Source: an uncultured virus (IMG/VR IMGVR_UViG_3300029787_000013) (lineage: Duplodnaviria; Heunggongvirae; Uroviricota; Caudoviricetes). From it: 24,602 bases of DNA. The notes under the pieces are model-generated. The model worked only from the letters and a program-made list of their open reading frames with translations, searched no databases and was not told the origin of the DNA. The DNA lies in IMG/VR virus record IMGVR_UViG_3300029787_000013; one strand, 5' to 3'. The number at the start of each line of letters is the position of its first letter. Position 1 is the stretch's first letter. This document shows, one piece after another, positions 1,119 to 24,602 of the stretch. Made by a program: the position numbers and the translations under genes.

Positions 1119-1406
1119 TTATTGTTTAAATATACCCATACAGAAATGTTCAGGAATCATTATATATGATACATCCTCTATATTTATAATATTACCTGTA
1201 GTTGTTGGATTAACCATAGCAAGATCTCCAACCTTAGCTTGTTTACACTCAGGTCCTATAGCTAGTATTTCAGAAATGTTAGATTGTAATTTAGCAGACA
1301 TATTTTCTGGTAAGATAATACCACTTTCAGTCTCCTCTACTCTAGGATCAGCAATTAACACCCAATCCCTTGTTGGAGTAAAGTCTTTTAAAGTTTGTTT
1401 TGACAT
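1119..1406 (-). CDS. groES: Co-chaperonin GroES (Cpn10 family)
   Basis: 95 aa; 'PTRDWVLI', mobile loop 'ETESGIILP', 'EILAIGP', 'KVGDLAM', 'YIMIPEHFCMGIF' follow the Cpn10 pattern. Confidence 0.9.
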   Translation of the reverse strand: MSKQTLKDFTPTRDWVLIADPRVEETESGIILPENMSAKLQSNISEILAIGPECKQAKVGDLAMVNPTTTGNIINIEDVSYIMIPEHFCMGIFKQ

Positions 1407-3124: not shown

Positions 3125-3727
3125 ATGAAAAATCAATTAAATTCAGGGTCACTGGAGACATTAAAACCAGAACAAACATTACTAATGTCTGCAAGAAAAG
3201 TAAATGGAGGTAAACTTCAATTAGAATTTGCAGAAGTTATTAAAAATGGAAAAGGTATGAATGTACTAGGAATATTAAATAAATCTGATGAAAGATTTAG
3301 TTCTAGTGCTAGACGTGCTTGGGTAACTGCTGAGCCTAATGACGCTCAAGAAAGCTTTGGTATTAACTTTGGTGTTGATGCTGGCTGGGAAATGACAGAT
3401 AGAGGAGAAATACTATTTCTTGATATATTAAATCCTACAATAGATGGAACACGTTGTAGAGTACAAATCAATGAAACAGTTGAAGCTACTGACTGGCAAG
3501 AAGAAAATAAACACAGAGCTGCTAAAAGAAAAGGTAAAGATGGAGATTTTATTACACATGACGGTAATTACATTTATAGTAATACAGCTGTAATATTAAG
3601 TAATGAAACACCAACACATACTATTCTTCAACCTGACTCTATTACAATAAGCGAAATGGTTGACACTACAACTGGTGAAGTTTTAGAAACAGTAGAAGCT
3701 ATGCATGAGGACGACTTACCTCTATAA
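3125..3727 (+). CDS. Hypothetical protein with an SSB-like acidic C-terminal tail
   Basis: 200 aa, beta-rich-looking core, acidic C-terminus ending EDDLPL. Confidence 0.75.
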   Translation: MKNQLNSGSLETLKPEQTLLMSARKVNGGKLQLEFAEVIKNGKGMNVLGILNKSDERFSSSARRAWVTAEPNDAQESFGINFGVDAGWEMTDRGEILFLDILNPTIDGTRCRVQINETVEATDWQEENKHRAAKRKGKDGDFITHDGNYIYSNTAVILSNETPTHTILQPDSITISEMVDTTTGEVLETVEAMHEDDLPL

Positions 3728-3755
3728 TTAACAAGTCAATTTAAATTAATACTTT

Positions 3756-3802
3756 GAGTTTAGTGTAGCCTATATATATTATAGGTTACACTCAGCTCTT
3801 TT
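3756..3802 (+). terminator. Long stem-loop, probable terminator or processing site
   Basis: AGTGTAGCCTATA/TATAGGTTACACT 13-bp stem (one G-U) plus an outer GAG/CTC pair, followed by TTTT. Confidence 0.7.
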
Positions 3803-3868
3803 ATAGATGTTTGGATTAAATTTCAATCGGTGCAACTTCTTAATTTTAACTTTTAATACTTTTAACAA

Positions 3869-3988
3869 ATGGACACAACTTATACAATAGCTGTTTGTTT
3901 AGCACTCGGACTTGGATTTCTTGCAGGATTATATATCTGCACACAAATCAGCGACTGGATAAATAAACAGATTAAAAAAGATAAATAA
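3869..3988 (+). CDS. 39-aa single-pass membrane peptide
   Basis: MDTTYTIAVCLALGLGFLAGLYICTQISDWINKQIKKDK*: hydrophobic helix and basic tail; the stop is 1 nt before the next ATG. Confidence 0.7.
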   Translation: MDTTYTIAVCLALGLGFLAGLYICTQISDWINKQIKKDK

Positions 3989-3989
3989 T

Positions 3990-4577
3990 ATGGGAATGGA
4001 TATTTATGGGTTAAACCCAAAACAAATTACAGGTATAAAACCTGAATTTCCTGATGATTGGAATAAATTATCAGATAAAGCAAAAGAATGTTATTGGGAA
4101 TTAGACGCTGAATTCAAAGCAAATAATCCTGGACATTATTTTAGAGCAAACATTTGGAGTTGGAGACCAATTCATATGGCCTGCTTTGCAGCAAAAACTA
4201 TTCATGATTTACAATTCGATGCAGATCTAGATGAATGGGGCTTTAATAATGGATGTGGACTAAAAACACAAGAAGAATGTAATGATTTAGTAAAAGGACT
4301 AGAAGAATTAATAAAAGGTTTTAATATCGCTGATGTTAAATACTTTGGATATAATTTATCTAGAATGTGGAATATAAAAAATTCAAATGGATATACACAT
4401 ATTGATGATGAGAAACTAATAAACTCATTAAATATGTTATATCCAGAAGATTCTTTAGTTACACAAATGCCTAAAATAAAAGATCAAACATACTTTCCAA
4501 GTCATGTAACAACAACTGAACATTTAAAAGAGTTTGTTGAGTTTTTAAGACATTGTGGAGGCTTTGAAATACTTTAA
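3990..4577 (+). CDS. Phage hypothetical protein
   Basis: 195 aa with 'MGMDIYG', 'YFRANIWSWRPI' and 'EFVEFLRHCGGFEI', motifs typical of uncharacterised phage proteins. Confidence 0.8.
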   Translation: MGMDIYGLNPKQITGIKPEFPDDWNKLSDKAKECYWELDAEFKANNPGHYFRANIWSWRPIHMACFAAKTIHDLQFDADLDEWGFNNGCGLKTQEECNDLVKGLEELIKGFNIADVKYFGYNLSRMWNIKNSNGYTHIDDEKLINSLNMLYPEDSLVTQMPKIKDQTYFPSHVTTTEHLKEFVEFLRHCGGFEIL

Positions 4578-4618
4578 AAATTAGTATATAAATATTTTAA
4601 ATATATAATAAAATTTAG

Positions 4619-4626
4619 TATATTTG
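4619..4626 (+). promoter_or_regulatory. Bacteroidota-type -7 element TATATTTG at the head of the replication block
   Basis: Exact TAnnTTTG match, identical to the groES promoter octamer, in an AT-rich intergenic gap. Confidence 0.55.
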
Positions 4627-4703
4627 TATACGTTATATAAATAATTTGTGTATAAACGATTTTAACTACTTGGAAATCAATACTATACACTACGATGCAA
4701 CAT

Positions 4704-4750: not shown

Positions 4751-4978
4751 ATGGGATTAGATAGAATTTCAAAACATCAAAAAATAGTCAGTTCAAAATA
4801 TGTTTACAATAAAGATGGTACTTACAAAGGCCATAAAAAAATATGGAACATACCTGAAACTATAACTTCTGATGTAACTTTTCAATTACATTTTGGCTTT
4901 ACCTATCCTAATGATAATTTTAGAATAAAAAAAGTAGGGCAAACATATCCACTGCCTGAAAGAATAAAAAGAAAATGA
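4751..4978 (+). CDS. Hypothetical protein (75 aa; start revised from 4646)
   Basis: ATG 4751 (MGLDRISKHQK...) lies after the hairpin; its stop overlaps the polA start (ATGA). Confidence 0.65.
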   Translation: MGLDRISKHQKIVSSKYVYNKDGTYKGHKKIWNIPETITSDVTFQLHFGFTYPNDNFRIKKVGQTYPLPERIKRK

Positions 4979-6861
4979 TTACATATATAGGAAACGCTAC
5001 AACTTCACAAGATTATTGTACAGTTAAAGGGGGTATAAATGATGTTGTGAAGTATTGTAGCGATAAACATGTAATTGCAGTAGATACTGAAACAAACGGA
5101 TTAGATTTTACTAGCAATGAAATAGTTATGTTACAAATAGGTGATGAACATCATCAATTTATAATAGACGTTAGAACAATTGATATTTCCCCTCTAAAAG
5201 ATATATTTGAAAGTAGAGAGATAATTAAAGTTTTACATAATGTAAAATTTGATTATGTATTTATTAAATCAAAGTTCAGCATTAATATGCAAAATGTTTA
5301 TGATACTATGTTAACTGAAAAAGTTATTCATTGTGGTAAAAACTTAAAATTTGGACTAAAAGATCTAGTAAAGAAATACTTTCAAATAGAAATAGATAAA
5401 AACATTAGAACAACATTTAACACAGAGAAACCATTTACTAAAGAACAAATAAAATATGGAGCTAAAGACATAGAGTATTTAATAAAACTTAAAGACCTAC
5501 AAAAACCATTAATTGATAAATATAAATTAGATAGCACAGTTGAATTAGAAAATAAAGCTGTATTAGCATTTGCTGATATAGAATACAATGGATTAAATAT
5601 TGATAAAGATAAATGGAAACTAGTATACATCGAGAATAAAAAGAGAGCAGATAAATTAAATGAGAAATTAGATTTAATGGTAATTGAGGATATTAGATTG
5701 CAAAAATTTGTATTAGAATATATACAAGGTGATTTGTTTACAGCTACAACTGAACTAAGAAAAGTCAGTGTTAATTGGGACTCACCTAAACAAGTATTAT
5801 CTGTATTTAATTGTATTTTACCTGATTTAGAAAATGTAAATGGTAAATATTTAAATAAACATAGATATAGAATACCTGTAATTAATCAATATATTAAATA
5901 TAAAGAAGCAATGAAATTATGTACATCTTATGGTGATGCATTCTTTGATAATATTCGTGCAGATGGTAAAATACATACAAACTTTCATCAGATATTAGAT
6001 ACTGGTAGAGTTAGTAGTAGTAAACCTAATATGCAACAAATACCTGCTGATAATTTATTTAGAAATTGTTTTATTGCACCTGCAGAGTGGAAGTTCGTGT
6101 CTGCAGACTATAGTAGTCAAGAGTTAAATGTCATTGCTTTTGGTAGCAAAGATCCTGTATGGATTGAAGCGCTTAAAAGAGGCGAAGATTTACACTCTGT
6201 ATGTGCTGATCTTGTTTATGGAGAAAAATGGACAGACGTTGCTGAAACTGATTGTTCTTACTTTATAGATAAATCTAAGTGTAATTGTGCTCAGCATAAA
6301 TCAATGAGAACCAATGTCAAAACTATAAACTTTGGCTTAGCCTATGGCATGGGTCCACATAAATTAGCGGACACGTTGAATATCCCAATCAACGATGCAA
6401 AAATTCTTATTAAGAAATACTTTGCATCTTTTCCAGCTATAGGTGGGTTCTTAGATAAACTTGCAAGATTTGGTAAGAAGTTTGGATATATTAAAACATT
6501 TCCTCCTTATAATAGAAGAAGATGGTTTGATAGTTGGTATCCTAATATTTGGAATGCCTCTGAATCTAAACGTGAACTTGGAAGTATTGAAAGAGCATCA
6601 AAGAATACCCCTATTCAAGGTGCTTCTGCAGATATGACTAAGTTAGCTTTAATATTAATAAGAGAATATATAGCTATAACTAAATGCCCTGTTAAAATAG
6701 TAATGACTGTACATGATCAGATCGATACTATTTGTCATCAAGATTATCTAGATGAATGGACAGCTAAAATAAAAGAACTTATGGAATTAGCTGCTAATAA
6801 AATAGTTACAAATGGCCTGTTAAAAGCTGAAGTGGGAATCAGTGATTACTGGCAAAAATAA
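4975..6861 (+). CDS. polA: Family A DNA polymerase with 3'-5' exonuclease (no 5'-3' exonuclease domain)
   Basis: ExoI 'VDTET', ExoII 'HNVKFD', ExoIII 'YGAKD'; 'TGRVSSSKPNMQQIP'; motif A 'ADYSSQEL', motif B 'RTNVKTINFGLAYG', motif C 'VHDQI'. Confidence 0.97.
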   Translation: MITYIGNATTSQDYCTVKGGINDVVKYCSDKHVIAVDTETNGLDFTSNEIVMLQIGDEHHQFIIDVRTIDISPLKDIFESREIIKVLHNVKFDYVFIKSKFSINMQNVYDTMLTEKVIHCGKNLKFGLKDLVKKYFQIEIDKNIRTTFNTEKPFTKEQIKYGAKDIEYLIKLKDLQKPLIDKYKLDSTVELENKAVLAFADIEYNGLNIDKDKWKLVYIENKKRADKLNEKLDLMVIEDIRLQKFVLEYIQGDLFTATTELRKVSVNWDSPKQVLSVFNCILPDLENVNGKYLNKHRYRIPVINQYIKYKEAMKLCTSYGDAFFDNIRADGKIHTNFHQILDTGRVSSSKPNMQQIPADNLFRNCFIAPAEWKFVSADYSSQELNVIAFGSKDPVWIEALKRGEDLHSVCADLVYGEKWTDVAETDCSYFIDKSKCNCAQHKSMRTNVKTINFGLAYGMGPHKLADTLNIPINDAKILIKKYFASFPAIGGFLDKLARFGKKFGYIKTFPPYNRRRWFDSWYPNIWNASESKRELGSIERASKNTPIQGASADMTKLALILIREYIAITKCPVKIVMTVHDQIDTICHQDYLDEWTAKIKELMELAANKIVTNGLLKAEVGISDYWQK

Positions 6862-12431: not shown

Positions 12432-13484
12432 ATGGCAATAAAAAGTAGAAGTAGTGATACATATTTACATTCAAGCGTAATTTTAAATAAGATAAGTGAG
12501 TATGATATATTTAAATATTATTGCCCACAATTTGAAAAACTAGGTAAAAAATTTTGTAGTCCTTTAAGAAATGATTCTAATCCTACTGTATCTATTATAC
12601 AGTGGAGACACAAATTATTATATAAAGATTTTGGACAACCTGAACATACATTTGATTGTTTTTCTTTTGTAAGTCACAAATATGAATGTGACTTTTTTAG
12701 TGCGCTACGTATAGTAGACATGGATTTCAATTTAAACTTAGCATCTCATATAGAAGTAAGAAAATTTACTATGGGATATTTAGGTGTTAAATACAATAAA
12801 GACATTCAACCTAAAAAAGTAACTATTATAAAGAAAAAACGACGAGCATGGAATCAACAAGATGCAAACTTTTGGAGTCTTTTTAGTATATCTAAATTTA
12901 CTCTAAAATATTTTAATGTTGAGCCTATTAGTCATTATTGGATTAATGAAAATAGATTTCATTGTAATGAGATTACTTATGCATATAAGTATAGATCAAA
13001 ATATAAAATCTATTCTCCTTATTCAGAAGTTAAATGGATGAGTAATACAACAGCTAAACAGATTCAAGGTTGGAAACAATTAAAAGTTGATTGGCATACT
13101 CAATATGTTATAATAACATCATCGTTAAAAGATGTAATGTGTTTATACCAAATGGGACATCCAGCAATTGCGTTGCAAAGTGAAATGCAAATGCCTGATG
13201 AAAAATTAATAAGTGAACTTAAAAATAAATTTGAATGTATTATATTACTATATGACAATGATTTTGATAATCCTAACAATCCAGGCCAAACTATGGCAGA
13301 AAAAATTAAAAGTAGGTATTATTCAGAACATGTGCAAAATATATGTATAGATACATCTTATAAAAGTAAAGATTTATCAGATTTAATTAAGAATCACGGG
13401 TTAGAAACAGCAATACATTTTATGAAAACAATAATTGAAAATAAATTAAAAGATTATGAGAAGAGTGAAACGCTCCCCTTCTAA
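12432..13484 (+). CDS. DNA primase (DnaG-like; degenerate CHC2 domain plus TOPRIM)
   Basis: 'FCSPLRNDSNPT...YKDFG...DCFSFV...DFFSAL' N-domain; TOPRIM 'IITSSLKDVM', 'LYDND', 'KDLSD'. Confidence 0.85.
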   Translation: MAIKSRSSDTYLHSSVILNKISEYDIFKYYCPQFEKLGKKFCSPLRNDSNPTVSIIQWRHKLLYKDFGQPEHTFDCFSFVSHKYECDFFSALRIVDMDFNLNLASHIEVRKFTMGYLGVKYNKDIQPKKVTIIKKKRRAWNQQDANFWSLFSISKFTLKYFNVEPISHYWINENRFHCNEITYAYKYRSKYKIYSPYSEVKWMSNTTAKQIQGWKQLKVDWHTQYVIITSSLKDVMCLYQMGHPAIALQSEMQMPDEKLISELKNKFECIILLYDNDFDNPNNPGQTMAEKIKSRYYSEHVQNICIDTSYKSKDLSDLIKNHGLETAIHFMKTIIENKLKDYEKSETLPF

Positions 13485-13908
13485 GGGAAAAATTAAAAAC
13501 GCAACTAAATGTACTTATAAGGGTATAAAATTTAGATCTAAATTAGAACTATTTACTTATAAACAATTAGAAAGCGCAGGAATTAAATCTATGTATGAAG
13601 AAAATACATATACACTTTTACCAGGATTTTATTTAGAGATGGATAGTTATGAACCAAGCAAACAAGGGTATAAAAATAATACCAAAAAAATAAGAGCGGT
13701 TACATACACACCAGATTTTGTAGATCCTAAAGGTAAATGGATAATAGAAGTTAAAGGATACGCTAATGATGTGTTTCCTATAAAATGGAAATTGTTTAAA
13801 TTATATTTATTAGAAAATGAAATGGATTGCACTTTGTTTTTACCTAAAAATCAAAAACAAGTTAAAGAAACTGTTGAACTTATAAAAAAATTAGAAAATG
13901 AGTATTAA
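13456..13908 (+). CDS. PD-(D/E)XK endonuclease (DUF1064 / T7 endonuclease I-like resolvase)
   Basis: 'FRSKLE', 'YTPDF', 'IIEVKG'. Confidence 0.85.
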   Translation: MRRVKRSPSKGKIKNATKCTYKGIKFRSKLELFTYKQLESAGIKSMYEENTYTLLPGFYLEMDSYEPSKQGYKNNTKKIRAVTYTPDFVDPKGKWIIEVKGYANDVFPIKWKLFKLYLLENEMDCTLFLPKNQKQVKETVELIKKLENEY

Positions 13909-16690
13909 AACTATTAATAAAGAAATCAGAGGCTCTGAAGGAATCGCTAAGCGAATCAATAAAGGAGCTGAAAAAATGGTTTTTGATATTTTACAATCTA
14001 CTCAATATTCTACACCTATTCCTTCAACCGTTAGAGAGTTAGTCACAAATGCATGTGATTCTCAACGTGAGAAAGAAATAGCAATAGAAATATTAAAAGG
14101 AGATAAAAAGATTGAAGACTATTACGTTAAAAGACATGGAGAAGCATATGAAGATAGTAATTTTGATCCTAGTTACTATGACTTAAATCATTTGGATCAG
14201 TACAATAACAAGGTTGATGTTTTATATGAACAAAGACCTGGTGTTGGATTTTGTGACACGTTTGCAGTAATTGATTATGGTGTAGGTATAGGAGAGAGAA
14301 GACTTGAAGGTGTTCTTGAGCTAGGATATTCTACCAAAAGAAATACTGCTGAAAATTTTGGAGCATTTGGTTTGGGCGCCAAGGTTGCATTGTCTACTGG
14401 TGTAGACTTTTATACTATTGAAACTATACATAATGGTATGAGATTTAAATGCAATTGTTATAATTATAAGACTGATTTTATTATACCTAAATTTGGTAAA
14501 AATGGAATTAATCCTCATATAACATTCTTAGATGGAACTAAAGTGTATTATGAAAAAACTACTAAGCAAAATTTTACTAAAATATCATTTGGTGTTAAGA
14601 AACACAATCGAAGTAAATTCTTTGACTCTATTGAAGAGCAACTAATTTATCTTGATAATGTTAATTGTAAAAGAGTTGATTATCTTGAAGATGGGTCTAT
14701 TGTCCGTGAGGAAGATGTAGATTTTCAAGCTAAAGTTTTACATAATTCAGAAAACTTAATTATTTCAGATAGTTATATATTTAATAGACCGCATATTGTG
14801 GTTGTTAGAGAAAAAGGAGCTAGTACTGGTATTAATTATGGGCACATAGATTTCCGTGAGTTAGAAATGGAGAGTCTATGGGGTGCTATTGCATTTAAAT
14901 GTCCTATTAGACAGAGTATGCATGATCCTGAAACTAATGAAGAGATAGTTATTCAAGAGGGTGTAGATGTTACTCCATCGAGAGAAAAAGTTATTTGGAA
15001 TGAAAAAACTAAAGCTTATGTCCAAGGTGTAATTAAAAGAGCTGCTGATGAAGCAAGTAAGATCATAGAAGAACAATTGCAAGAAAGCGATTATATTAAA
15101 TGGTTACATGCTTGTACTCAAGTTTTACATGATGCAGATAGTAATTCTACATTAGGAAGACTATCTAAAATTATAGATAAAACTGAGATAAAGCCCAAAT
15201 TTCCTGGTAATAAGAAACTTACTTTTCAAGCTCCTAAAACAGTGTTTAAACATTTAGATGTAAAAACACTTGTACAGGCGTATGATTATAAAGAAAAGAA
15301 AGATAAAATTGAAAGGAATGAATTAGATAAATGGGGAAATTGGAATCCAGAAGCTGTCTATCTTAAATCTACTATGGAAAGTTTTAATAGATTTAAAGAT
15401 ATGTATTTATTAGAATTGCATAGTGGTAAAGTAGTGGTTATAGATGAAGAAATGGATACTATTATACCAGATGCTATTACTAAGATGCAAAGCGGCCATG
15501 GAAAACAACAGGCTGTAGGTTTATTTAAGAATAGTCTTAATAAATCAAAACTTGTTTTTGATGCTATTAAAGCATCGCCAGAACTTAAAAGTTATGATGA
15601 TGTTGAAGTTCCTGAAGAATGGTTAGAAGCTCGTAAGACAGAAATAGCAGAGAAAGAAGAGTTAGCAAAATTTGATAATCTATCAGCTGCAGAGCGTAGA
15701 GAGATAGAAAAGAGAATGGTTGCTTATACTCTTAGGTTTGAAGAAAATCAAGAAAGATATGTTTGGGACAAAATTGAGCCTAAAACTAAAGATCTTATGT
15801 CTACTGAAAGAATCACTTATTATGGTACTAAAGAAGATGAATCACAGCTACAATTTGCAGCAATGACTTTATTTTGGCAAGCGCCTACTCAAAGAGATTT
15901 TTATCAAGAGCAAGATAATGATGATCGTGGGTGGAGACCTTTTAGTAATGCACATGAACCTGTATTCTTTTATGATCAAGCTCCTGTTAGATTTATGAAA
16001 ACTTGGGGATCTGAAAGTGGCGCTTATGAAAAATGGGCACAAACAGAAAATCTTAGAAATGAGGATATAACTCTTCCGCAATTGATTAGATTATCTGCAA
16101 AGTCAGTTAAGTTTGTTAAGCAAAATTCTAACTGTAAGCATATAAGTGAGTACTTTTTACAATTAAACGATAAAAATGAATATACTATGGACACACATTT
16201 AATAAGATGGTATACTGCTCGTAAATTAGATGAAATTAGAAACTATCGATTTATGACAGGACTAAAAGGAATTCATCCTGAACTATTTGAAAAATTCAAA
16301 AACTGTTTTGATATTAGAAACGATCATTATAATCAAAGATATGAGAGATCTAATCAATTAACTAGTGATGAATATAATGGAATTATATCACAAATAGATA
16401 AACTTGATGAGTTTCAAAGATTTTGCAAAGAAACGGATGATGAGAATCTTATTGCACAAAAAAGTAGAGAGCTTTTTGTTCTGGATATTCCAGGAGCAGA
16501 AGCTACAATACAAAGTGTAATAGATGATTATGAAGAAATCCAAGAATTTGGAGAAACTTTACAGCCTTTATTAAATGCAATACCAGACGTTCAAGATGAT
16601 CCTGATTTCACACCAGATGTGACACCAGAATTAGAAAAGGAACTACGTATATATTTAGAAGCTAAAGACAGATTAAAATGGGAAAAATAA
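13898..16690 (+). CDS. rIIA: rIIA-like protein with N-terminal GHKL (HATPase) domain
   Basis: GHKL motifs 'VRELVTNACDS', 'DYGVGI', 'YSTKR...FGAFGLGAK'; 'VDVTPSRE' is typical of rIIA; an rIIB-like gene lies two genes downstream. Confidence 0.85.
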   Translation: MSIKTINKEIRGSEGIAKRINKGAEKMVFDILQSTQYSTPIPSTVRELVTNACDSQREKEIAIEILKGDKKIEDYYVKRHGEAYEDSNFDPSYYDLNHLDQYNNKVDVLYEQRPGVGFCDTFAVIDYGVGIGERRLEGVLELGYSTKRNTAENFGAFGLGAKVALSTGVDFYTIETIHNGMRFKCNCYNYKTDFIIPKFGKNGINPHITFLDGTKVYYEKTTKQNFTKISFGVKKHNRSKFFDSIEEQLIYLDNVNCKRVDYLEDGSIVREEDVDFQAKVLHNSENLIISDSYIFNRPHIVVVREKGASTGINYGHIDFRELEMESLWGAIAFKCPIRQSMHDPETNEEIVIQEGVDVTPSREKVIWNEKTKAYVQGVIKRAADEASKIIEEQLQESDYIKWLHACTQVLHDADSNSTLGRLSKIIDKTEIKPKFPGNKKLTFQAPKTVFKHLDVKTLVQAYDYKEKKDKIERNELDKWGNWNPEAVYLKSTMESFNRFKDMYLLELHSGKVVVIDEEMDTIIPDAITKMQSGHGKQQAVGLFKNSLNKSKLVFDAIKASPELKSYDDVEVPEEWLEARKTEIAEKEELAKFDNLSAAERREIEKRMVAYTLRFEENQERYVWDKIEPKTKDLMSTERITYYGTKEDESQLQFAAMTLFWQAPTQRDFYQEQDNDDRGWRPFSNAHEPVFFYDQAPVRFMKTWGSESGAYEKWAQTENLRNEDITLPQLIRLSAKSVKFVKQNSNCKHISEYFLQLNDKNEYTMDTHLIRWYTARKLDEIRNYRFMTGLKGIHPELFEKFKNCFDIRNDHYNQRYERSNQLTSDEYNGIISQIDKLDEFQRFCKETDDENLIAQKSRELFVLDIPGAEATIQSVIDDYEEIQEFGETLQPLLNAIPDVQDDPDFTPDVTPELEKELRIYLEAKDRLKWEK

Positions 16691-17538
16691 CAAAAGACGT
16701 TAGAAAAACTTTTGTAATACGACCCTCTGGGAGATCTACAGATTATATATCTCCTAGTTTTGGTTATGGTTGCTTGTATGACTGTTCATACTGTTATATG
16801 AAGCGCCATAAACCTGATGGATTATCTATTGCAGTAAACCCACATGATATATTAACAGCTGTTAATGATCATGCTACGTTTGCTGTAGTAGATAAACCCA
16901 ATCAGACTCATGCTAAATATATTACCTATGATATTAGTTGCAACGAAGATTTTGCATTGCATGCTAAATATCATAAATGGGAATATATATTTGATTTTTT
17001 CAAAGAGCATGAACGAGCAATGGGTAGCTTTGCTACAAAGTACGTTAATCCAAATTTAATCAATTATGATCCGCAAGGAAAAATTAGAATAAGATTTAGT
17101 TTAATGCCTCAACATATGTCTGATTTACATGAGCCTCGTACCACACCTATTATTGATAGAATAAAAGCTATTGATGCATTTATAGATGCTGGATACGATG
17201 TACATGTAAATTATAGCCCTATTATAGTATATAAAGGATGGTTAGAAGACTATAAAGAAGTATTTAACATGATGAACGACTATATAGATTACAAAGAACA
17301 AGTATTAGCAGAATGTATTTTTCTAACACACGAAGAGAATAAACACTTAAAAAACTTACACAATAAACCATTAGCAGAGGAAGATTTATGGCAACCCAAG
17401 TTACAAGAGACAAAGAGATCTCAGTACGGAGGACTAAATATTAGATACAAGCTAAATTTAAAACGTAAGTTTATTAGAGAATTTGAACAGCTACATGGAG
17501 CTATGATTCCATGGAATAAAATTAGATATATTTTTTAA
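16678..17538 (+). CDS. splB: Spore photoproduct lyase-like radical SAM enzyme
   Basis: CxxxCxxC 'GCLYDCSYCYM'; 'YDISCNED', 'FATKY', 'RIRFSL', 'EPRTTPIIDRI', 'SPIIVYKGWLEDY', 'QYGG..IRY' and 'IRYIF' are colinear with Bacillus SplB motifs as recalled. Confidence 0.85.
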   Translation: MGKITKDVRKTFVIRPSGRSTDYISPSFGYGCLYDCSYCYMKRHKPDGLSIAVNPHDILTAVNDHATFAVVDKPNQTHAKYITYDISCNEDFALHAKYHKWEYIFDFFKEHERAMGSFATKYVNPNLINYDPQGKIRIRFSLMPQHMSDLHEPRTTPIIDRIKAIDAFIDAGYDVHVNYSPIIVYKGWLEDYKEVFNMMNDYIDYKEQVLAECIFLTHEENKHLKNLHNKPLAEEDLWQPKLQETKRSQYGGLNIRYKLNLKRKFIREFEQLHGAMIPWNKIRYIF

Positions 17539-17558
17539 TAATTAAAAACTAAAGTAAA

Positions 17559-18731
17559 ATGATTTCAATCAACGTTATTGACGACAAGATCTCAGGATCT
17601 TATGGGGATACCCCATTTTGTATAGACTTCGATGAGAAAGTTTATGCACAAATGCAAGAGTTAGCTAATATGGCTAACAAAGCAGAAACGGTTGAGGAAT
17701 ACGAAAGGTCTTTAAGATCTTTCGCTCCTCTAGCCGTGATGGATTACACAAAAACTGTAGAATCACAATGTGAATTTATTCATATAAATAAAGGAACAGG
17801 TGAATTCTTTTTAAAGCACAACGGTGTAGTTTCATCAATACCAATGCCTAAAGCATTAGTAGATAGAATATTTGAATCTATTGATAAAGGTGTTAGTTTT
17901 GACCCACTAGTTAAAATGTGGACTAGATGGTTAAGAAATACTATTCTTAGAAGAAAAACTGAAAAAGGTTTTGGAATGGATTTTTCTACACGATTTTTTA
18001 ATTTTGTAAACATGCAATATGTGCACCCTAAACTCAAAGAAGAGCTTATGGAAGAGCACGGTCTAAGTGAAGAAGCCGCTAGAAAAAGAGCGACGATGTA
18101 TCAAATGAAGATCACTAATGAAGGACTTTTAAATGGTTATAAAGTTTCTACTGAAATACTTGATAAGTATAATGCAGAAACTGGAGAAATAGAACCAAGA
18201 TATAAAAGAACCTTCAATCCTGATACAGGTGAAATTGATTCAGATGGTTTACCTGAAAATGTAGAAGATAGATTATTTCAACCTTCTGTAATGGGAAATG
18301 GTGGTAAAGCATTTTATTGTGAAGGACCAAATGGATACGGTGGAACCCCGCAACATTTTATTAAAGTTGGATGTACTCATAGACTAGCTAGTTGGGACGA
18401 CGTTAACACTAATGATACACGATCATGTGTTCCAGGTCTTCATGTAGGTGGTTTAAAGTATATCTCTTGGTACAGTGGTGAGATACACAATGTATTTATT
18501 GATCCTATGCATATTGGTGCAGTACCTGATGATGAAGATGGTGCGATCAGATGTTTGCAGTATTTTGTTCACTCATCTCTTGCAGGTGTAAATGGTTCTA
18601 TGTATCATAGTTCTAGTTATGCTGCGCAAACAGATGCAGAATGGGACTCAATGCGTGCAGAAGCTGTACAAGCTAAATCTGAATGTAAAGAAGCATGTGA
18701 TAAAGAAACAGCTGAATTAAATGCTTTATAA
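17559..18731 (+). CDS. rIIB: rIIB-like protein
   Basis: 'ITNEGLLNGYK' and C-terminal 'SCVPGLHVGGLKY...VFIDPMHIGAVP...GAIRCLQY' match the rIIB C-domain pattern (C..GLH...Y...V.P.D.V.VP....R...Y). Confidence 0.85.
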   Translation: MISINVIDDKISGSYGDTPFCIDFDEKVYAQMQELANMANKAETVEEYERSLRSFAPLAVMDYTKTVESQCEFIHINKGTGEFFLKHNGVVSSIPMPKALVDRIFESIDKGVSFDPLVKMWTRWLRNTILRRKTEKGFGMDFSTRFFNFVNMQYVHPKLKEELMEEHGLSEEAARKRATMYQMKITNEGLLNGYKVSTEILDKYNAETGEIEPRYKRTFNPDTGEIDSDGLPENVEDRLFQPSVMGNGGKAFYCEGPNGYGGTPQHFIKVGCTHRLASWDDVNTNDTRSCVPGLHVGGLKYISWYSGEIHNVFIDPMHIGAVPDDEDGAIRCLQYFVHSSLAGVNGSMYHSSSYAAQTDAEWDSMRAEAVQAKSECKEACDKETAELNAL

Positions 18732-19585
18732 TGTCAGATAAAGATAATAAGTCACTAGACGAACTCTGGGATGATAAGTCTAGTGACTCATCTTTATTTG
18801 GACCACTGCCATATGAAATAGAATTAATGTATGGAGAGCAATCTCCAGTTGCATTAATTGATGGCGACAGTTTATTATATTATGAAATGAATAAACCTAC
18901 ATTAGAGGAAGCTATTAAATCATTAGATGATAGAATAATAAATATGCTTGCATTTTGTGAAACTTGTAATTTTGTTGGATTCTTAACAATAGGTAAATGT
19001 TTTAGGTATGGCGCCGCAAAACAAAGACCTTATAAAGGTAATAGAAAAGGTGGCTCTAAACCGCCTATATTTTATGCTTTAAAAGAATATATACAACAAA
19101 CTTGGAAGTTCAGATATGTAAAAGGATTAGAAGCAGATGATTTAGTATGTTCTTATAAAACAGGTAATTCAATATTGTGTAGTCCCGACAAAGATGTACT
19201 ATTACAGTCTCAAGGGAGACATTTTAACTATGGTAAAAGTGAATTTGTTATAACTACACATAAAGATGCAGCACAGTTTTTATGGAAACAAATGTTAATG
19301 GGAGACTCTGGAGATGGCATACCAGGCATACCAAAAATAGGTCCCAAAACAGCAGAATTAATCATAAAAGACCAAGAAATAACAGACTTGCCACAAATCG
19401 TATTAAATAAATATATAGAAAAATTTGGAATATTAAAAGGAATTACTATCTTTGAAGAGACATTTAACCTGATCTACATTCTTAGATCTGCAGACGACGT
19501 ACTTCACAGAACAGGAATTCAACTTGAGGAGTTGAATCCAATTAATATTAACATTTTAAATAATTCTATAAATGGCAACAGTTAA
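18731..19585 (+). CDS. 5'-3' exonuclease / RNase H (FEN family, T7 gp6-like)
   Basis: 'ALIDGDSLLY', 'YKGNR', 'LEADD', 'SPDKDV', H3TH 'GDSGDGIPGIPKIGPKTA'. Confidence 0.92.
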   Translation: MSDKDNKSLDELWDDKSSDSSLFGPLPYEIELMYGEQSPVALIDGDSLLYYEMNKPTLEEAIKSLDDRIINMLAFCETCNFVGFLTIGKCFRYGAAKQRPYKGNRKGGSKPPIFYALKEYIQQTWKFRYVKGLEADDLVCSYKTGNSILCSPDKDVLLQSQGRHFNYGKSEFVITTHKDAAQFLWKQMLMGDSGDGIPGIPKIGPKTAELIIKDQEITDLPQIVLNKYIEKFGILKGITIFEETFNLIYILRSADDVLHRTGIQLEELNPININILNNSINGNS

Positions 19586-20321
19586 ATGTGATATACCTAG
19601 CTTCAATGTAGTTGGAGCTGGGCATATACGAATATCTGGTGGTACTAGTTTAATTAAACCACATTATTTTGAAAATGAACTACTATCATTAGAATTCACA
19701 AATGGTAAAGTAATATCTAAAGGAGAAAATCTTATAATTAAAAACAAATCGTATAAAATTAATTTAATACAAAAAACAAAACGTAAAGGTATCCTATTTT
19801 ATGATCTAAAAACATGTAATAGAAATAAAGCATGCTTATTTGTAACTCCTATGTTAGGAGGAAATAAATCATTGTGGTTTTATACTCAATCTTTAATAAA
19901 CACTTTTATAGGAATTAAAGATGATGTAGAAGATAAAATTATTTTATTATATAAAACATCTAGAGATCCATTATTTTTAAAGTTTTTAAATACAATTCAA
20001 AAATTTAAAGCTTTTGAAGAAGTGCGGGACCTAGATAAAGATCATTTAATAGTTATTTTTAATGTGCCTAAAAAACATAAAAAAGATTTTTTAAAATTTA
20101 AAAACGGTAAATATTCAGAAATGTCTCAATTATACAAAGTAAAAATATTAGAATATCATGAAATGTCAGTTGAAGGAATTATAGGACAAATATTGTTTAA
20201 ATCTAAAAAGCGTAAACGTAAATTAGAAAAAATGATTGGAATGGAATTGCCTGATGATGCAGAAGTGTATAGTATACCTAATCCTAAAACTGAATTGCTT
20301 AATACAAATTATTATTTATAG
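19572..20321 (+). CDS. Hypothetical protein (basic), last gene of the replication block
   Basis: 249-aa ORF overlapping the exonuclease stop. Confidence 0.75.
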   Translation: MATVKCDIPSFNVVGAGHIRISGGTSLIKPHYFENELLSLEFTNGKVISKGENLIIKNKSYKINLIQKTKRKGILFYDLKTCNRNKACLFVTPMLGGNKSLWFYTQSLINTFIGIKDDVEDKIILLYKTSRDPLFLKFLNTIQKFKAFEEVRDLDKDHLIVIFNVPKKHKKDFLKFKNGKYSEMSQLYKVKILEYHEMSVEGIIGQILFKSKKRKRKLEKMIGMELPDDAEVYSIPNPKTELLNTNYYL

Positions 20322-20357
20322 CATTAAGGCTGCTGTTAATAGCAGTGGCCTTTAATG
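20322..20357. terminator. Hairpin between convergent transcription units (probable bidirectional terminator)
   Basis: CATTAAGG-CTGCTG-TTAA-TAGCAG-TGG-CCTTTAATG inverted repeat spanning the 30-bp gap between two stop codons. Confidence 0.65.
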
Positions 20358-23300
20358 TTCCATTTGTTTGTATTGTGGATATATTTCAAAATATGAAACA
20401 AATGAGGCAAGCCCTGGAAGAAATTTAAATGTATAGTATCCTGGAGGAGTTTTATCAGGACTATCATCTTCTCCAAACATAGAGTCTGTAAGTTCATCCA
20501 AAGAATTATCTGCAAACTTAATAAATTGGCCTCCCATAGATATTAATGGAACACCTGTAGATCTAGGAGATCCTATAAATTCTCTCCAATCTATAAAGAA
20601 AGCAACTTCACGATAGATTCTATTTAAATATCTATGTAATTGTCTACCAGCCCAAGTTTCTCTTATATCAATATCTCCATCATCATCCCAATCTCCTCCA
20701 ATAGCCATAATTGATAACATCAATAATATCACAGCTCTTACTTCAGATAAAGCCGCCCTTATATTGGCTCTTTTCAATTCCAAAAACTTTTTGAATTCAA
20801 TTTCATATTCAGTATCTCCTTTTTGGATTAATCTTTTAGATCCCTCTTCACCTTTCATAAATTTTGCTTCCCCAAACCTATTTGCTAAAAACTTATTAAA
20901 TTGCCCCTCAGCTATTTCCTGCTTTATATTAAAATTTGGACCGTATCCAAATGTTACTATATCTAATCCTATTTTCATTATATCTGCTCCTACTTGTTTT
21001 GCAGTTAAATGAAATGCTATTTCTGCTTTTATCCCATCTTCTATAGTTTCAAATGCTTTTTCTTTCCCGACATTAGCAAATAAACTTTTCCATGTACCTT
21101 CATTATAATGATCCATTATATAATCATATCTTAAATTTCCATATCTTTCTAAAGCTAACCCAGGTAACCATGATCTGTAATGCATCATTAGTTTTCCAAA
21201 CATACCTGAATGAATTAACATCTTATCGTCTTGATCCATTGTACCTTTAACACTTGTAGATTGAGCTCTTACCTTAGCTTTAAAACTTCTATAATTATCA
21301 AACTCTTGTTTATTTTTTATATCAAGGCTAACACCTTTAACTTTTACTTTATATCTATCTTTTACAGAAGTCCTACTCCAATTTTTAACTTCTTCCATTT
21401 CTATAGTATCCAATAAAGAATCTGTTCCTTCAGGTAAATCCTGCATCCTTTCTAATTTTCCTGTTTCAGGATGAATTCCATAATTTTGTGCCATAGACAC
21501 AGCTAATAAAGCATCAAGTCTATTATCTGCCCTTGCTAAAAACTCGAACCATCTATCATGCTGCATATATTTAGCACGTTTTGATGTAGCTAATAAATCA
21601 CCACGCCTTTGTCTTAGATCAATTAAACTAAAATCAAAATATTCTATTATAGCTCTAACTTTAGGATCAAGAGACATTATCATTTTATAAGCTTTATTTA
21701 ATTGTTTTTGATTATAGAATAATCCTTTAGACGCTTGAATTCTTAATCCCGCTTTACCTGCACCATATGCACCAATAGCCACAGGAATTTTTAAACCTAA
21801 AGCTGTTATACTTGCAAAATTTTTCAGTGCTAAAATACTTTTATTTCTACTTACATTAGTTCCCCACATTAGAACATCTTTTGTGCTCATATTCCTTCCA
21901 TATATTTCCATATCTACAAACTCATTAAAAGTTTCAGCAGTTGTTGATTTTGGAATAACCTGCGCTCTTTGTAATGTTTCCATTACTAAATCTCCTTTTT
22001 TATCTAAAACCTGTTCTTGAACAATTTTATCGTTTAATAAAGCTTCTAATACAGAAATTTGAGGAATAGCTTCAACATTAAATTTATATTGATGGGCTGC
22101 TACAGCTATTAAATATAGATTCTTACCTAATTCTTTACTTTTTAAAGTTCTATCTATCTTACCTGTTTTTTTATTTATTAACTCTCGTACAAATAATCTA
22201 GGCACATGTCTAATATACTCACCGTTAGTATCTGTCATTTGAAGACTTAAATCATGTTCTCTTACTTGAAGTAGATCCATAACAGATTCTGACATTTTTG
22301 ATGCACTAAATCCATCTTGGACCCAAGTATCTATTACATCTTTATGTACATTTGCAATAAACCCCGATCCTAAATCTTTACCAAATATATGGCTAACTTT
22401 CCACATTAAATTTCTATGATAATCATAAAAGTTTCTTAATGCGGGCACAGCTTGAATTCTTTTATAGTCTTCAGATAGATACTCAGCAGCAGCTCCTGAG
22501 ATAGTAGCTAATCCTGTAGGTTTTAAATTTCTTGCATTTAACCATGCAGAGTCATGATTTTTAAGATCCCATCTTTTTTCCCAAGCTGTTTTCTTTCTTT
22601 CCTTTTCTCTTGTGCTTTGGTTTGTAGCCTCAATTGCACGAAAAGCATTAGCTTTCCATTTTTCATAAACTTTATTATATTTTTCTAAATCTATTTGATA
22701 GTATTTTTTAATCCACTGTATTCCTTCTCTTTTCCCTGCTTCATCAACACGCGCTTTATTTAAAGCTTTTTCTCTATCAACTCCAAACTCTGGTCTATAT
22801 TTAGAATGTAAACGCATTCGTTTTTGATCAATTAAAAAATCATACACATTGGGACCATAAACACCTTGAGTCGCTCCATATGTTGTTAGTTCTTGCTCTA
22901 GCTCTTCTATTTCTACTGCAAGATCTTTAGAAATTTTATTGATTTGAGTATGATTTGTATTTACAATATCATGCAAATATCTTATAAAAGGATTATTATG
23001 CCTTGCTAACGATACAAAGTTTTTAGTTACCCAGTCTGTTGGAGTGTTAAAAGATTCTAAACTAAGAATACCTCTACTTTTAGCTCGATCTTTAGCTCTA
23101 GTAAGTAACTGTTCTTGAATAGCACTTAAAGTACGGTTAACTCTAGATGTAACTTCTATTTCTTTTTTTAATGTATCATATCGTTTTTTATCATACTTTT
23201 CTAAAAAGTTCAAATATTCATTCTGCCCTAAATAAGTTTGGTAGTATTTTAAGTCTTTATAAGTTGCAACTAGTTCTGTATCATCTATAAACTTTGTATT

Positions 23301-24602
23301 TGCTTTACCATCAATAAATTCTGGTTCACCTAAATTTTGAAGTCTATTAATAGTATTATTCATTTCTCTTAATGCAGTTCCAATATCGTAATTTACCTGC
23401 ATCTTACGTATAATAAGCTGTGAATCTTGAATTCTTTTTTTAAGGATCTGAGATTGCTTATAATCTGCTTCGTTTAATTCAGCTTTTAATTGTTGTAATC
23501 TTTTATTTTCTAATAAAATTAATTTTTCTAAACTAGTAATTACTTTTCCTTTTGTATCTCTTGGGCGTTCTCCTGCAACAGGTATAGGATCTAAAAAAGA
23601 TCTATAAGATTTAGACTCATGATCTAATCTTCTTTTTCTTGCTTCATTTTTCTCATACTTATTTAAAAAAGGCCCTCCTATTTGAAGATCGTCGATGATC
23701 CCTGTAGGTATTCCTTCTTTACTATATTTATATACTACAGATCCAGGTATAATTCTTGATTCTCTTATATCTTTTACACCATATTTTTTTATCAAAGTTT
23801 CTTTATAATCTGAAATTTGTATATCATATTGATCTATAGAATCTGCATAAAAATCTTTTAATATTTTATATCCTCCAGCTACTTTACGCGCCTGTGCTTT
23901 ATTTAAAGTACTTGGAGTTTTAAATTTATAATCATATATAGATGCTGTATTATCACTATATAAAATTAATACATCAATTGTACCTCCACTTTGTCTAGAT
24001 TCATTAACTACAAATTGTTCTGCTCTAAAAGCAAAATTTTTATTTTTATCAATTGTGTTTTGTGTGGCTCTTGCATGAGACAATAAATTACGAACAAGAC
24101 TTTGTAGTTCAGTAAAATGAGAAACACTTAAACCTGACTCAGCTAAAATAGTTTGTGGAGTTTTAGTAGATTTTTTTGTGAAATAATTTGCTAGATCTTG
24201 TAAAGTATTATGAAACATAGTTCCCCCCTTCATTCTAATCTCACTTATTGTTTTAAAATACTGTTCCTCTTCTTTAGTTCTTTGAATATGCCCATACTTT
24301 TTCATGTTATACAAAGTAACAGCATCACTAGTTCTATGTAATAAATGTTTATCTAAACGTTGATTATAATATCTTGTAATATATTCATCTTCTGTTAATT
24401 TTTGCCACTCAGGGTTATTTGCAGTGACAGCTTCTTCATCTATAATATAATCTTTAGCTATATCGTCTAGCTTTTGTAAAGTCTTTGCTCTAGGATCCAT
24501 TGTTTCTTCTGCTGCATAAAATGCAACATCTTCTTTAAAAACAGCGTCAGTTAATTTACCTTCAAATTTAGATTTTTTAACTAGATAATCCTGTAAAGAT
24601 TT
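20352..24602 (-). CDS. Giant, probably virion-injected protein (C-terminal part) with a RecB-like PD-(D/E)XK domain; 5' end outside the window
   Basis: The frame stays open from 24500 to the window edge (KSLQDYLVKK...AAEETMDPR), so it is >1416 aa. Nuclease motifs 'GTMFH', 'AEQFV', 'GTIDVL', 'IYDYK', 'QISDY'; helical remainder with a hydrophobic segment 'AVILLMLSIMAIGG'. Confidence 0.8.
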   Translation of the reverse strand, partial: KSLQDYLVKKSKFEGKLTDAVFKEDVAFYAAEETMDPRAKTLQKLDDIAKDYIIDEEAVTANNPEWQKLTEDEYITRYYNQRLDKHLLHRTSDAVTLYNMKKYGHIQRTKEEEQYFKTISEIRMKGGTMFHNTLQDLANYFTKKSTKTPQTILAESGLSVSHFTELQSLVRNLLSHARATQNTIDKNKNFAFRAEQFVVNESRQSGGTIDVLILYSDNTASIYDYKFKTPSTLNKAQARKVAGGYKILKDFYADSIDQYDIQISDYKETLIKKYGVKDIRESRIIPGSVVYKYSKEGIPTGIIDDLQIGGPFLNKYEKNEARKRRLDHESKSYRSFLDPIPVAGERPRDTKGKVITSLEKLILLENKRLQQLKAELNEADYKQSQILKKRIQDSQLIIRKMQVNYDIGTALREMNNTINRLQNLGEPEFIDGKANTKFIDDTELVATYKDLKYYQTYLGQNEYLNFLEKYDKKRYDTLKKEIEVTSRVNRTLSAIQEQLLTRAKDRAKSRGILSLESFNTPTDWVTKNFVSLARHNNPFIRYLHDIVNTNHTQINKISKDLAVEIEELEQELTTYGATQGVYGPNVYDFLIDQKRMRLHSKYRPEFGVDREKALNKARVDEAGKREGIQWIKKYYQIDLEKYNKVYEKWKANAFRAIEATNQSTREKERKKTAWEKRWDLKNHDSAWLNARNLKPTGLATISGAAAEYLSEDYKRIQAVPALRNFYDYHRNLMWKVSHIFGKDLGSGFIANVHKDVIDTWVQDGFSASKMSESVMDLLQVREHDLSLQMTDTNGEYIRHVPRLFVRELINKKTGKIDRTLKSKELGKNLYLIAVAAHQYKFNVEAIPQISVLEALLNDKIVQEQVLDKKGDLVMETLQRAQVIPKSTTAETFNEFVDMEIYGRNMSTKDVLMWGTNVSRNKSILALKNFASITALGLKIPVAIGAYGAGKAGLRIQASKGLFYNQKQLNKAYKMIMSLDPKVRAIIEYFDFSLIDLRQRRGDLLATSKRAKYMQHDRWFEFLARADNRLDALLAVSMAQNYGIHPETGKLERMQDLPEGTDSLLDTIEMEEVKNWSRTSVKDRYKVKVKGVSLDIKNKQEFDNYRSFKAKVRAQSTSVKGTMDQDDKMLIHSGMFGKLMMHYRSWLPGLALERYGNLRYDYIMDHYNEGTWKSLFANVGKEKAFETIEDGIKAEIAFHLTAKQVGADIMKIGLDIVTFGYGPNFNIKQEIAEGQFNKFLANRFGEAKFMKGEEGSKRLIQKGDTEYEIEFKKFLELKRANIRAALSEVRAVILLMLSIMAIGGDWDDDGDIDIRETWAGRQLHRYLNRIYREVAFFIDWREFIGSPRSTGVPLISMGGQFIKFADNSLDELTDSMFGEDDSPDKTPPGYYTFKFLPGLASFVSYFEIYPQYKQMEH

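Follow-up and report, generated by a model that had tools for sequence, protein, structure and literature searches.

A Short Spore Photoproduct Lyase-Family Radical SAM Gene in the Replication Module of an Uncultured Marine crAss-like Phage

The DNA of an uncultured virus filed in IMG/VR as IMGVR_UViG_3300029787_000013 (24,602 nucleotides, the whole of which is referred to below as the window) carries, between genes resembling rIIA and rIIB, a gene for a 286-residue protein of the spore photoproduct lyase (SPL) family. As judged from the sequence, the protein is a radical S-adenosylmethionine (SAM) enzyme of this family and not an orthologue of SplB, the enzyme of Bacillus. We hold with moderate confidence that it is a working DNA lyase, which would directly reverse thymine dimers of the spore photoproduct (SP) type without the help of light. 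Spore photoproduct lyase has been treated as a speciality of endospore-formers; here, a shortened relative, catalytically complete as far as its residues go, ranks with the best-conserved genes of marine phages that are themselves abundant, and this short form offers a natural minimal SPL for mechanistic work.

The new element is the short SPL variant in phages. The gene as such is already known to automatic annotation: among 3196 matching proteins in a collection of 5.8 billion proteins, some bear the JGI name "spore photoproduct lyase". A full-text literature search found no paper on a phage-encoded enzyme of the SPL family besides gp53 of Pseudomonas phage M6.

Family Assignment and Fold

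The protein matches the Pfam family PF20903 (SPL) with 86.6 bits against a gathering cut-off of 27, over profile positions 63–337 of 338, and the model TIGR03886 ("spore photoproduct lyase family protein") with 312.9 bits over positions 62–346 of 346, which is below the cut-off of 437.55. The model of SplB proper, TIGR04070 (photo_TT_lyase), gives 80.7 bits, below its cut-off of 400, and the Pfam model Radical_SAM gives 21.7 bits, below 29.5; the marks of the superfamily, a CxxxCxxC motif for the [4Fe-4S] cluster and a partial TIM barrel, are nonetheless present. The AlphaFold2 (AF2) model of the protein has a mean pLDDT of 96.4, and a Foldseek search with it returned six SP lyase entries (4FHC-type chains) at TMq 0.87–0.89 and a root-mean-square deviation of 2.1–2.4 Å, the next radical SAM enzymes reaching at most TMq 0.53 (the matches include RlmN, PFL-AE, and anSME). 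A profile of 48 sequences aligned with the Geobacillus SP lyase 4FHC over the full length (E 7e-30). The preliminary description, made from the letters alone, had called the gene SPL-like; this stands for membership in the family, and needs qualifying as regards SplB proper, from which the low TIGR04070 score and a missing N-terminal domain set the protein apart.

The N-terminus lies at about residue 64 of the Geobacillus enzyme, and a domain of about 60 residues is missing. In SplB, this alpha/beta domain is described as a four-stranded sheet with three helices (PMC3467042). Position 16678 is the first start codon past an in-frame stop, which indicates that the short N-terminus is real; the phage homologues are 284–303 residues long. 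A split gene with a separate N-terminal domain was considered and rejected: a hidden Markov model of 53 bacterial N-terminal extensions gave a best E of 1.7 among 8099 six-frame fragments of the window and 80 loci, and the control matched 63 of 81.

Active-Site Residues

Subtracting 27 from the 4FHC chain numbers gives the published Geobacillus SPL numbering, which we use here, and the roles of the aligned residues are those given in PMC3467042, where R193 is described as binding O4 of the 5'-dihydrothymine. The correspondence is given in Table 1. The preliminary description had noted a CxxxCxxC motif with both flanking tyrosines and a cysteine within YDISCNED, and had supposed that these residues correspond to C141 and the tyrosine pair of SplB. 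All of them are present in the translation (YDISCNEDF is encoded at 16927–16953), and the alignment bears out the correspondence, with C88 facing C140 and Y38/Y40 facing Y96/Y98.

Table 1. Functional residues of Geobacillus SPL and their counterparts in the window protein, as placed by the sequence alignment.
Geobacillus SPL	Window protein	State
C90/C94/C97	C32/C36/C39	kept
Y96/Y98	Y38/Y40	kept
C140	C88	kept
R193	R139	kept
E268	E212	kept
Y339	Y284	kept
Y305 (hairpin tip)	Y250	kept
S76–S79 loop	S17–S20	kept
R304	Q249	not kept
R273	T217	not kept
K309	N254	not kept

With the SplB proteins of Bacillus and Geobacillus (TIGR04070; PDB 4FHC–4FHG, 4K9R, 4RH0), the window protein thus shares the fold including the long beta-hairpin, the cluster motif with its flanking tyrosines, and the positions of the hydrogen-donor cysteine, the thymine-binding arginine, the glutamate, and the C-terminal tyrosine. 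It differs in its identity of only about 20%, in the absence of counterparts of R273, K309, and R304 from the alignment, and in being encoded by a phage and not by a spore-former. The two strands of the hairpin comprise residues 243–247 and 253–257 in the AF2 model.

Conservation was followed in 81 phage copies, namely the window and the 80 closest loci. The cluster cysteines, the tyrosine pair, C88, R139, E212, and Y284 are each found in 81 of 81, as is the S17–S20 loop; position 250 is tyrosine in 78 copies and phenylalanine in three. R256 and K262, which lie near the phosphate-contact positions in the sequence alignment, are invariant.

In all, 824 cluster representatives (50% identity) match the protein at E 1e-3 or better. 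For the wider family, we compared 65 rows, the window and 64 near-full-length representatives among the 150 listed: C39 is kept in all 65, C32 and C36 in 62 each, Y38 in 58, and Y40 in 49. Some members (P0139, P0178, P0216, P0226, P0149, P0174, and others) have glutamate or threonine at the position of the hydrogen-donor cysteine, often with a cysteine four residues on (YDIGENSDC, YELGTNSDC), and P0176, P0177, and P0183 do not have the first cluster cysteine. From their motifs, both kinds look like functionally different subfamilies.

Selection on the Gene

The SPL gene is under strong purifying selection. In comparison with locus L001 (94% amino-acid identity), its dN/dS (Nei–Gojobori) is 0.087, the lowest among seven neighbouring genes; the others have 0.130 (exonuclease), 0.150 (rIIB), 0.188 (the Holliday-junction-resolvase-like gene, HJR), 0.205 (rIIA), 0.257 (primase), and 0.302 (orf249). 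Between more distant phages, which share only about 50% identity in rIIA, HJR, and primase, the protein remains 70–75% identical.

Bacterial Relatives and Phylogeny

Bacterial homologues, 43–50% identical to the window protein over its residues 10–286, are chromosomal and widespread outside phages. Long forms of 343–350 residues occur in Cytophagales, Sphingobacteriales, Chitinophagales, and Myxococcus, and that of Rufibacter scores 489.5 bits with TIGR03886, above the cut-off. The bacterial proteins of this type (Rufibacter, Pontibacter, Spirosoma, Mucilaginibacter, Myxococcus) share the YCY, cysteine, arginine, glutamate, and tyrosine residues with the window protein, which differs from their long forms in covering only profile positions 62–346 and in belonging to a separate clade of short forms.

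Bacterial short forms (about 291 residues) are found in Legionella, Candidatus Odyssella, Paracaedibacteraceae, Cesiribacter, Neolewinella, and others. Like the phage protein, they have no N-terminal domain, belong to the short clade, and keep YCY and the cysteine; unlike it, they are chromosomal, form a sister group to the phage clade, and carry a two-residue insert in the cluster motif, which reads C-x3-C-x4-C (CAGGCRNSYCY) in place of CxxxCxxC. Such short forms were seen in loci L085, L087, L089, L091, L094, L099, L104, L109, L151, and L157, with the open reading frame (ORF) at about 5001–5876 in most. The cysteine is present in 77 of the 80 loci of the bacterial scan, a figure which is biased, since one search pattern contained the cysteine motif.

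The maximum-likelihood tree (LG+G4) comprises 52 rows and is rooted on two SplB-like paralogues; five rows (four long-branch, one duplicate) were left out of it, and then 22 more, which were near-duplicates, long-branch rows, and some representatives of contexts or lineages. All 35 short forms fall into one clade (ultrafast bootstrap 95, SH-aLRT 99), inside which 19 rows form a clade of marine phages (100/99). This membership indicates that the phage SPL belongs to a separate lineage of short proteins that arose from the TIGR03886 type, and is not an orthologue of SplB.

Four contigs filed under bacteria also carry the phage type: L081, a 120,283-base contig filed as a Rickettsiales metagenome-assembled genome (MAG), and L082–L084 encode proteins 55–69% identical to that of the window, which fall inside the marine phage clade. 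These are probably phage contigs binned into MAGs. Two Rickettsia copies (L147 and L155, from R. asembonensis and R. tamurae), in which the region of the cluster motif is missing or unalignable and a tyrosine stands at the C140 position (YDIGYSTDV), look degraded.

Rufibacter, Pontibacter, and some other Cytophagales have two SPL-family genes side by side, one of them of the TIGR03886 type. Both paralogue types share the same core residues, and the presence of a TIGR03886-type gene and a paralogue nearer SplB in one genome suggests that the substrates of the two types may differ. In loci L086, L088, L090, L093, L107, and L111, the pair lies at about 3530–4630 on the minus strand and 4818–5849 on the plus strand; L112 and L118 have tandem pairs.

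The neighbourhoods of the bacterial homologues are mostly uninformative and variable, and rII neighbours are absent from them. In Mucilaginibacter (L124, L126, L133), the SPL-family gene (5001–5870) is immediately preceded, in the same direction, by genes for a bacteriophytochrome histidine kinase and a response regulator and by a small ORF, which hints at light-regulated expression. DinB_2 lies downstream of the SPL-family gene in five loci. The bacteriophytochrome and DinB_2 neighbours, seen in some Bacteroidota, hint at an ultraviolet (UV)-related role of the bacterial relatives and lend the function proposed below some indirect support.

Proposed Function

The course of the reaction can be drawn by analogy with SplB. 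Once the phage has infected a cell, the [4Fe-4S] cluster bound by C32/C36/C39 would, in its reduced state, cleave SAM, and the 5'-deoxyadenosyl radical would take a hydrogen atom from C6 of a flipped-out dimer of the 5-thyminyl-5,6-dihydrothymine type, held by R139, E212, Y284, and the S17–S20 loop, with the Y250 hairpin aiding the flipping. The methylene bridge of the dimer would then break, and C88 would return a hydrogen atom, with Y38/Y40 in the return path. As an outcome, the thymine dimer in phage DNA would be reversed without light, before or during replication. The substrate, the activity, the timing after injection, and the formation of SP in packed virion DNA are what we infer; the comparisons themselves establish the family and fold, the presence of the active-site residues, the purifying selection, and a position which varies among relatives but stays among DNA-metabolism genes.

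Several points weigh against a lyase of this kind acting on SP. The protein has no N-terminal domain, and the search described above points to none encoded separately nearby. Where the Geobacillus enzyme contacts phosphate through R273 and K309, the sequence alignment places T217 and N254, and the C140 position is variable in the wider family (cysteine in 36 of 65 rows, glutamate in 11, asparagine in five, tyrosine in four). Rufibacter and Spirosoma possess, in addition, a paralogue much nearer SplB (316 and 306 bits with TIGR04070), so that the two types may differ in substrate. Spore photoproduct is known from dehydrated, A-like DNA, and the literature search found no paper on its formation in phage heads, nor did it turn up an activity of a TIGR03886-type or short-form protein.

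Some of the same observations would suit an SPL-fold radical SAM lyase for a DNA lesion or adduct other than the classical 5R spore photoproduct, for example another thymine or pyrimidine cross-link arising from UV, radicals, or desiccation. The Cytophagales with this type and a nearer-SplB paralogue, side by side in Rufibacter and Pontibacter, suggest a division of labour, and the lack of conservation at R273 and K309 in the alignment, the missing N-terminal domain, and scores under the curated cut-offs of both NCBIfam equivalogs point in the same direction. Against a different lesion stand the residues which form hydrogen bonds with the thymine rings (R139, E212, Y284, and the S17–S20 loop) and the hydrogen-donor cysteine, all kept in 81 of 81 copies, and the identity of the core residues in both paralogue types; in our estimate, this explanation has only a modest chance of being right.

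A role in DNA modification has a phage precedent and, here, little probability. M6 gp53 is a radical SAM N-alpha-glycinylthymidine isomerase with a predicted SPL-like fold, which acts on thymine C5-methyl chemistry in DNA in the course of thymidine hypermodification, a protection of DNA from host nucleases (PMC8989533), and the SPL gene of the window sits among DNA-metabolism genes. However, BLASTP of the window protein against gp53 matches the cluster motif only (E 0.028, 45 residues); gp53, according to the account in PMC8989533 a protein of 480 residues from a hypermodification cluster, has the motif CTVGCAFC without the flanking tyrosine pair and is recognised by PA0069-like models alone (39.5 bits), the two SPL models giving no match. 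A Pfam scan of the 88-kb genome of G001, a complete relative of the window, covered 81 ORFs that do not cross the four 20-kb cuts, 50 of them without any family; among these 81, it found no thymidylate-synthase-like, pyridoxal phosphate (PLP)-decarboxylase, or photolyase family, and no recognisable gene of the 5-hydroxymethyldeoxyuridine (5-hmdU) pathway (dUMP hydroxymethylase, 5-hmdU DNA kinase, amino-acid:DNA transferase, PLP decarboxylase). The wide spread of chromosomal homologues outside phages also argues against a gp53-type function, which appears unlikely from these comparisons.

Returning to a lyase for SP-type dimers, we tentatively propose, with more doubt than conviction, that the near-crystalline DNA in phage heads in sunlit seawater may gather such dimers, as the preliminary description had suggested for densely packed virion DNA, and that a minimal SP lyase without the N-terminal domain would erase them, with no need of light, as soon as the DNA is injected. 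The carriers may be several marine phage lineages, some of them crAss-like and equipped with PolA, others with a polymerase of the PolB type. If this is true, SP is not peculiar to spores but a lesion to which condensed DNA is prone in general. Should the enzyme repair SP-type dimers, models of viral decay in the ocean make assumptions about UV damage that do not fit the chemistry in packaged viral DNA, and phages possess a light-independent route of repair by direct reversal. A functional analogue is endonuclease V of phage T4 (denV), a phage enzyme which, once infection has begun, mends UV dimers in the DNA of the phage itself; its fold and chemistry are unrelated, since it is a glycosylase/AP lyase acting on cyclobutane dimers and does not carry out radical direct reversal.

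Gene Neighbourhood and the rII Question

The preliminary description had reported a 286-residue gene overlapping the rIIA stop by 13 nt and ending 20 nt before rIIB, and this is exact: the overlap is 16678–16690 and the gap is 17539–17558. It had also supposed a functional link to rII, which fails the synteny survey it had itself named. For the 80 closest viral loci among the matches listed, the survey recorded the nearest ORF of at least 80 residues to the left and to the right of SPL. An upstream ORF is present in 75 loci and is rIIA-like in 22 of them; a downstream ORF is present in 74 and is rIIB-like in 21. Of the 70 loci which have both, 20 show the order rIIA–SPL–rIIB.

The neighbours fall into 18 upstream and 19 downstream protein clusters, and several arrangements recur: DnaB–SPL–Sak4; HJR–(87 aa)–SPL–DUF2201 metallopeptidase/VWA–ATPase; ribonucleotide reductase–x–SPL–x–MazG; DUF932–SPL–dUTPase; x–SPL–PolB-type polymerase; and PolA–helicase–x–SPL–x–DnaB. 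What is constant in the viral loci is the location of the SPL gene within replication or nucleotide-metabolism modules. In one lineage (L038, L040, L041, L043, L044, L046, L047, L052, L058), the slot between HJR and exonuclease is without rIIA–SPL–rIIB and holds SPL, a DUF2201 metallopeptidase/VWA protein, an ATPase, and a 344-residue protein.

The tight spacing and the repetition of the arrangement in those 20 of 70 loci would suit a unit of three genes whose products, the rIIA-like, SPL, and rIIB-like proteins, act together. Equally tight spacing is found, however, for all neighbours in the block: primase and HJR overlap by 29 nt, HJR and rIIA by 11 nt, rIIB and exonuclease by 1 nt, and exonuclease and orf249 by 14 nt, so that the spacing speaks for one operon and not for one three-gene unit. 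In the close relatives G001, G002, and G003, whose rIIB is 67–70% identical to that of the window, rIIA ends about 40 nt before rIIB, exonuclease and orf249 follow rIIB as in the window, and SPL lies between DnaB and Sak4. Other relatives have SPL beside the DUF2201/VWA–ATPase module, which replaces rII, or have SPL and no rIIB match (G004, 79% complete, and G005, 100% complete, 129 kb). Two SPL copies with rII neighbours (L016, L045) nest, in the tree, within the HJR–DUF2201 group (100/98), and the bacterial homologues, as noted, have no rII neighbours. We give the three-gene unit hardly any credence, and it is already largely refuted through synteny. By the gene orders compared, SPL came to lie between the rIIA-like and rIIB-like genes through an insertion specific to this lineage, a case of ordinary gene shuffling inside the replication module, and the arrangement carries no functional message.

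Phage Identity and Occurrence

G001 has 87,892 bases and the same replication module as the window, and the two rIIB proteins are 70% identical. Among its structural genes are those for a major capsid protein of the crassvirus type (PF23898, E 1.6e-78), for a muzzle protein, and for tail ring proteins, and the PolA of the window is nearest to that of crAss-like phages (27–32% identity). DNA of the window is present in contigs of four runs from four studies, labelled as marine or aquatic viral metagenomes. On the strength of the crassvirus structural genes of G001, the kinship of PolA, and the marine runs, we assign the window to an uncultured marine crAss-like phage.

Relatives of the SPL protein are encoded in at least 599 IMG/VR stretches (599 of 600 candidates were confirmed). 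A tblastn search of 50,697 phage records with the protein gave a single weak match of 24.7% identity, and a comparison of the window DNA from 13000 to 20000 with the phage records matched only short HJR stretches of gut crAss-like phages.

Locus and Neighbouring Genes

The coordinates of the gene, of its functional residues, and of the neighbouring genes are collected in Table 2.

Table 2. Coordinates of the SPL-family gene, its functional residues, and the adjoining genes in the window.
Feature	Position	Strand	Basis
DUF1064 Holliday-junction-resolvase-like (HJR) gene, left edge of the variable slot	13456..13908	+	Pfam DUF1064, E 1.7e-11; PHROG 190
rIIA-like GHKL-ATPase gene, 930 aa, upstream neighbour	13898..16690	+	PHROG 612, HATPase_c_3
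Predicted short-form SPL-family radical SAM gene, 286 aa	16678..17538	+	PF20903, TIGR03886, AF2 model, Foldseek
[4Fe-4S]/SAM motif C32-x3-C36-x-Y38-C39-Y40 (CLYDCSYCY)	16771..16797	+	translation; Geobacillus alignment
C88, counterpart of the hydrogen-atom-donor Cys (C140 Geobacillus, C141 B. subtilis)	16939..16941	+	alignments
R139, counterpart of Geobacillus R193	17092..17094	+	alignments
E212, counterpart of Geobacillus E268	17311..17313	+	alignments
Beta-hairpin residues 243–257, tip Y250, corresponding to the Y305 hairpin of SP lyase	17404..17448	+	AF2, profile alignment
Y284, counterpart of Geobacillus Y339	17527..17529	+	alignment
rIIB-like gene, 390 aa, downstream neighbour	17559..18731	+	PHROG 609
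5'-3' (FEN-type) exonuclease gene, right edge of the variable slot	18731..19585	+	PHROG 107, E 7e-48

The plus-strand block at about 2.8–20.3 kb is the replication module; it contains PolA, a DnaA-C helix-turn-helix protein, an SF2 helicase, a DnaB-like helicase, a Sak4-like protein, a primase, the DUF1064 resolvase, the rIIA-like, SPL-like, and rIIB-like genes, and the FEN-type exonuclease.

The genes flanking SPL are rII-like through remote homology only, as their profile matches suggest. The rIIA-like protein matches PHROG 612 ("RIIA lysis inhibitor") at E 4e-18 and the Pfam family HATPase_c_3 with 25.7 bits, and had no tblastn match at E 1e-5 among the 50,697 phage records. The rIIB-like protein matches PHROG 609 ("RIIB lysis inhibitor") at E 2e-7 over residues 280–341 only (62 residues); related phages have copies 67–93% identical to it.

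The junction between rIIA and SPL is spanned by one contig piece (16358–16802) from another marine run, X3, and that between SPL and rIIB by pieces from the marine runs X4 (17231–17629) and X5 (17423–17624). Since both junctions are bridged in this way, the order rIIA–SPL–rIIB is not an assembly artefact. Contigs of runs X4 and X5 follow the SPL gene to its stop (window 17545–17548) and then pass into unrelated sequence, a divergence which fits relatives having another downstream neighbour.

The G+C content of the window is 30%, and TT and AA together make up 25.6% of all dinucleotide steps. A promoter scan gave 51 sites against 57.9 expected, that is, no signal, and none of the runs listed as containing the DNA is an RNA run.

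On the minus strand, at 20352..24602, an ORF of at least 1416 residues, convergent with the replication block, runs off the end of the window and has no Pfam or PHROG match. In G001, there are giant ORFs of 4786 and 2087 residues, the latter being the crAss muzzle protein. A gene for a GroES-like co-chaperonin lies at 1119..1406 of the window on the minus strand (Cpn10, E 1.6e-6; PHROG 3188), and a Cpn10 gene is found near SPL in loci L053, L054, and L064 too.

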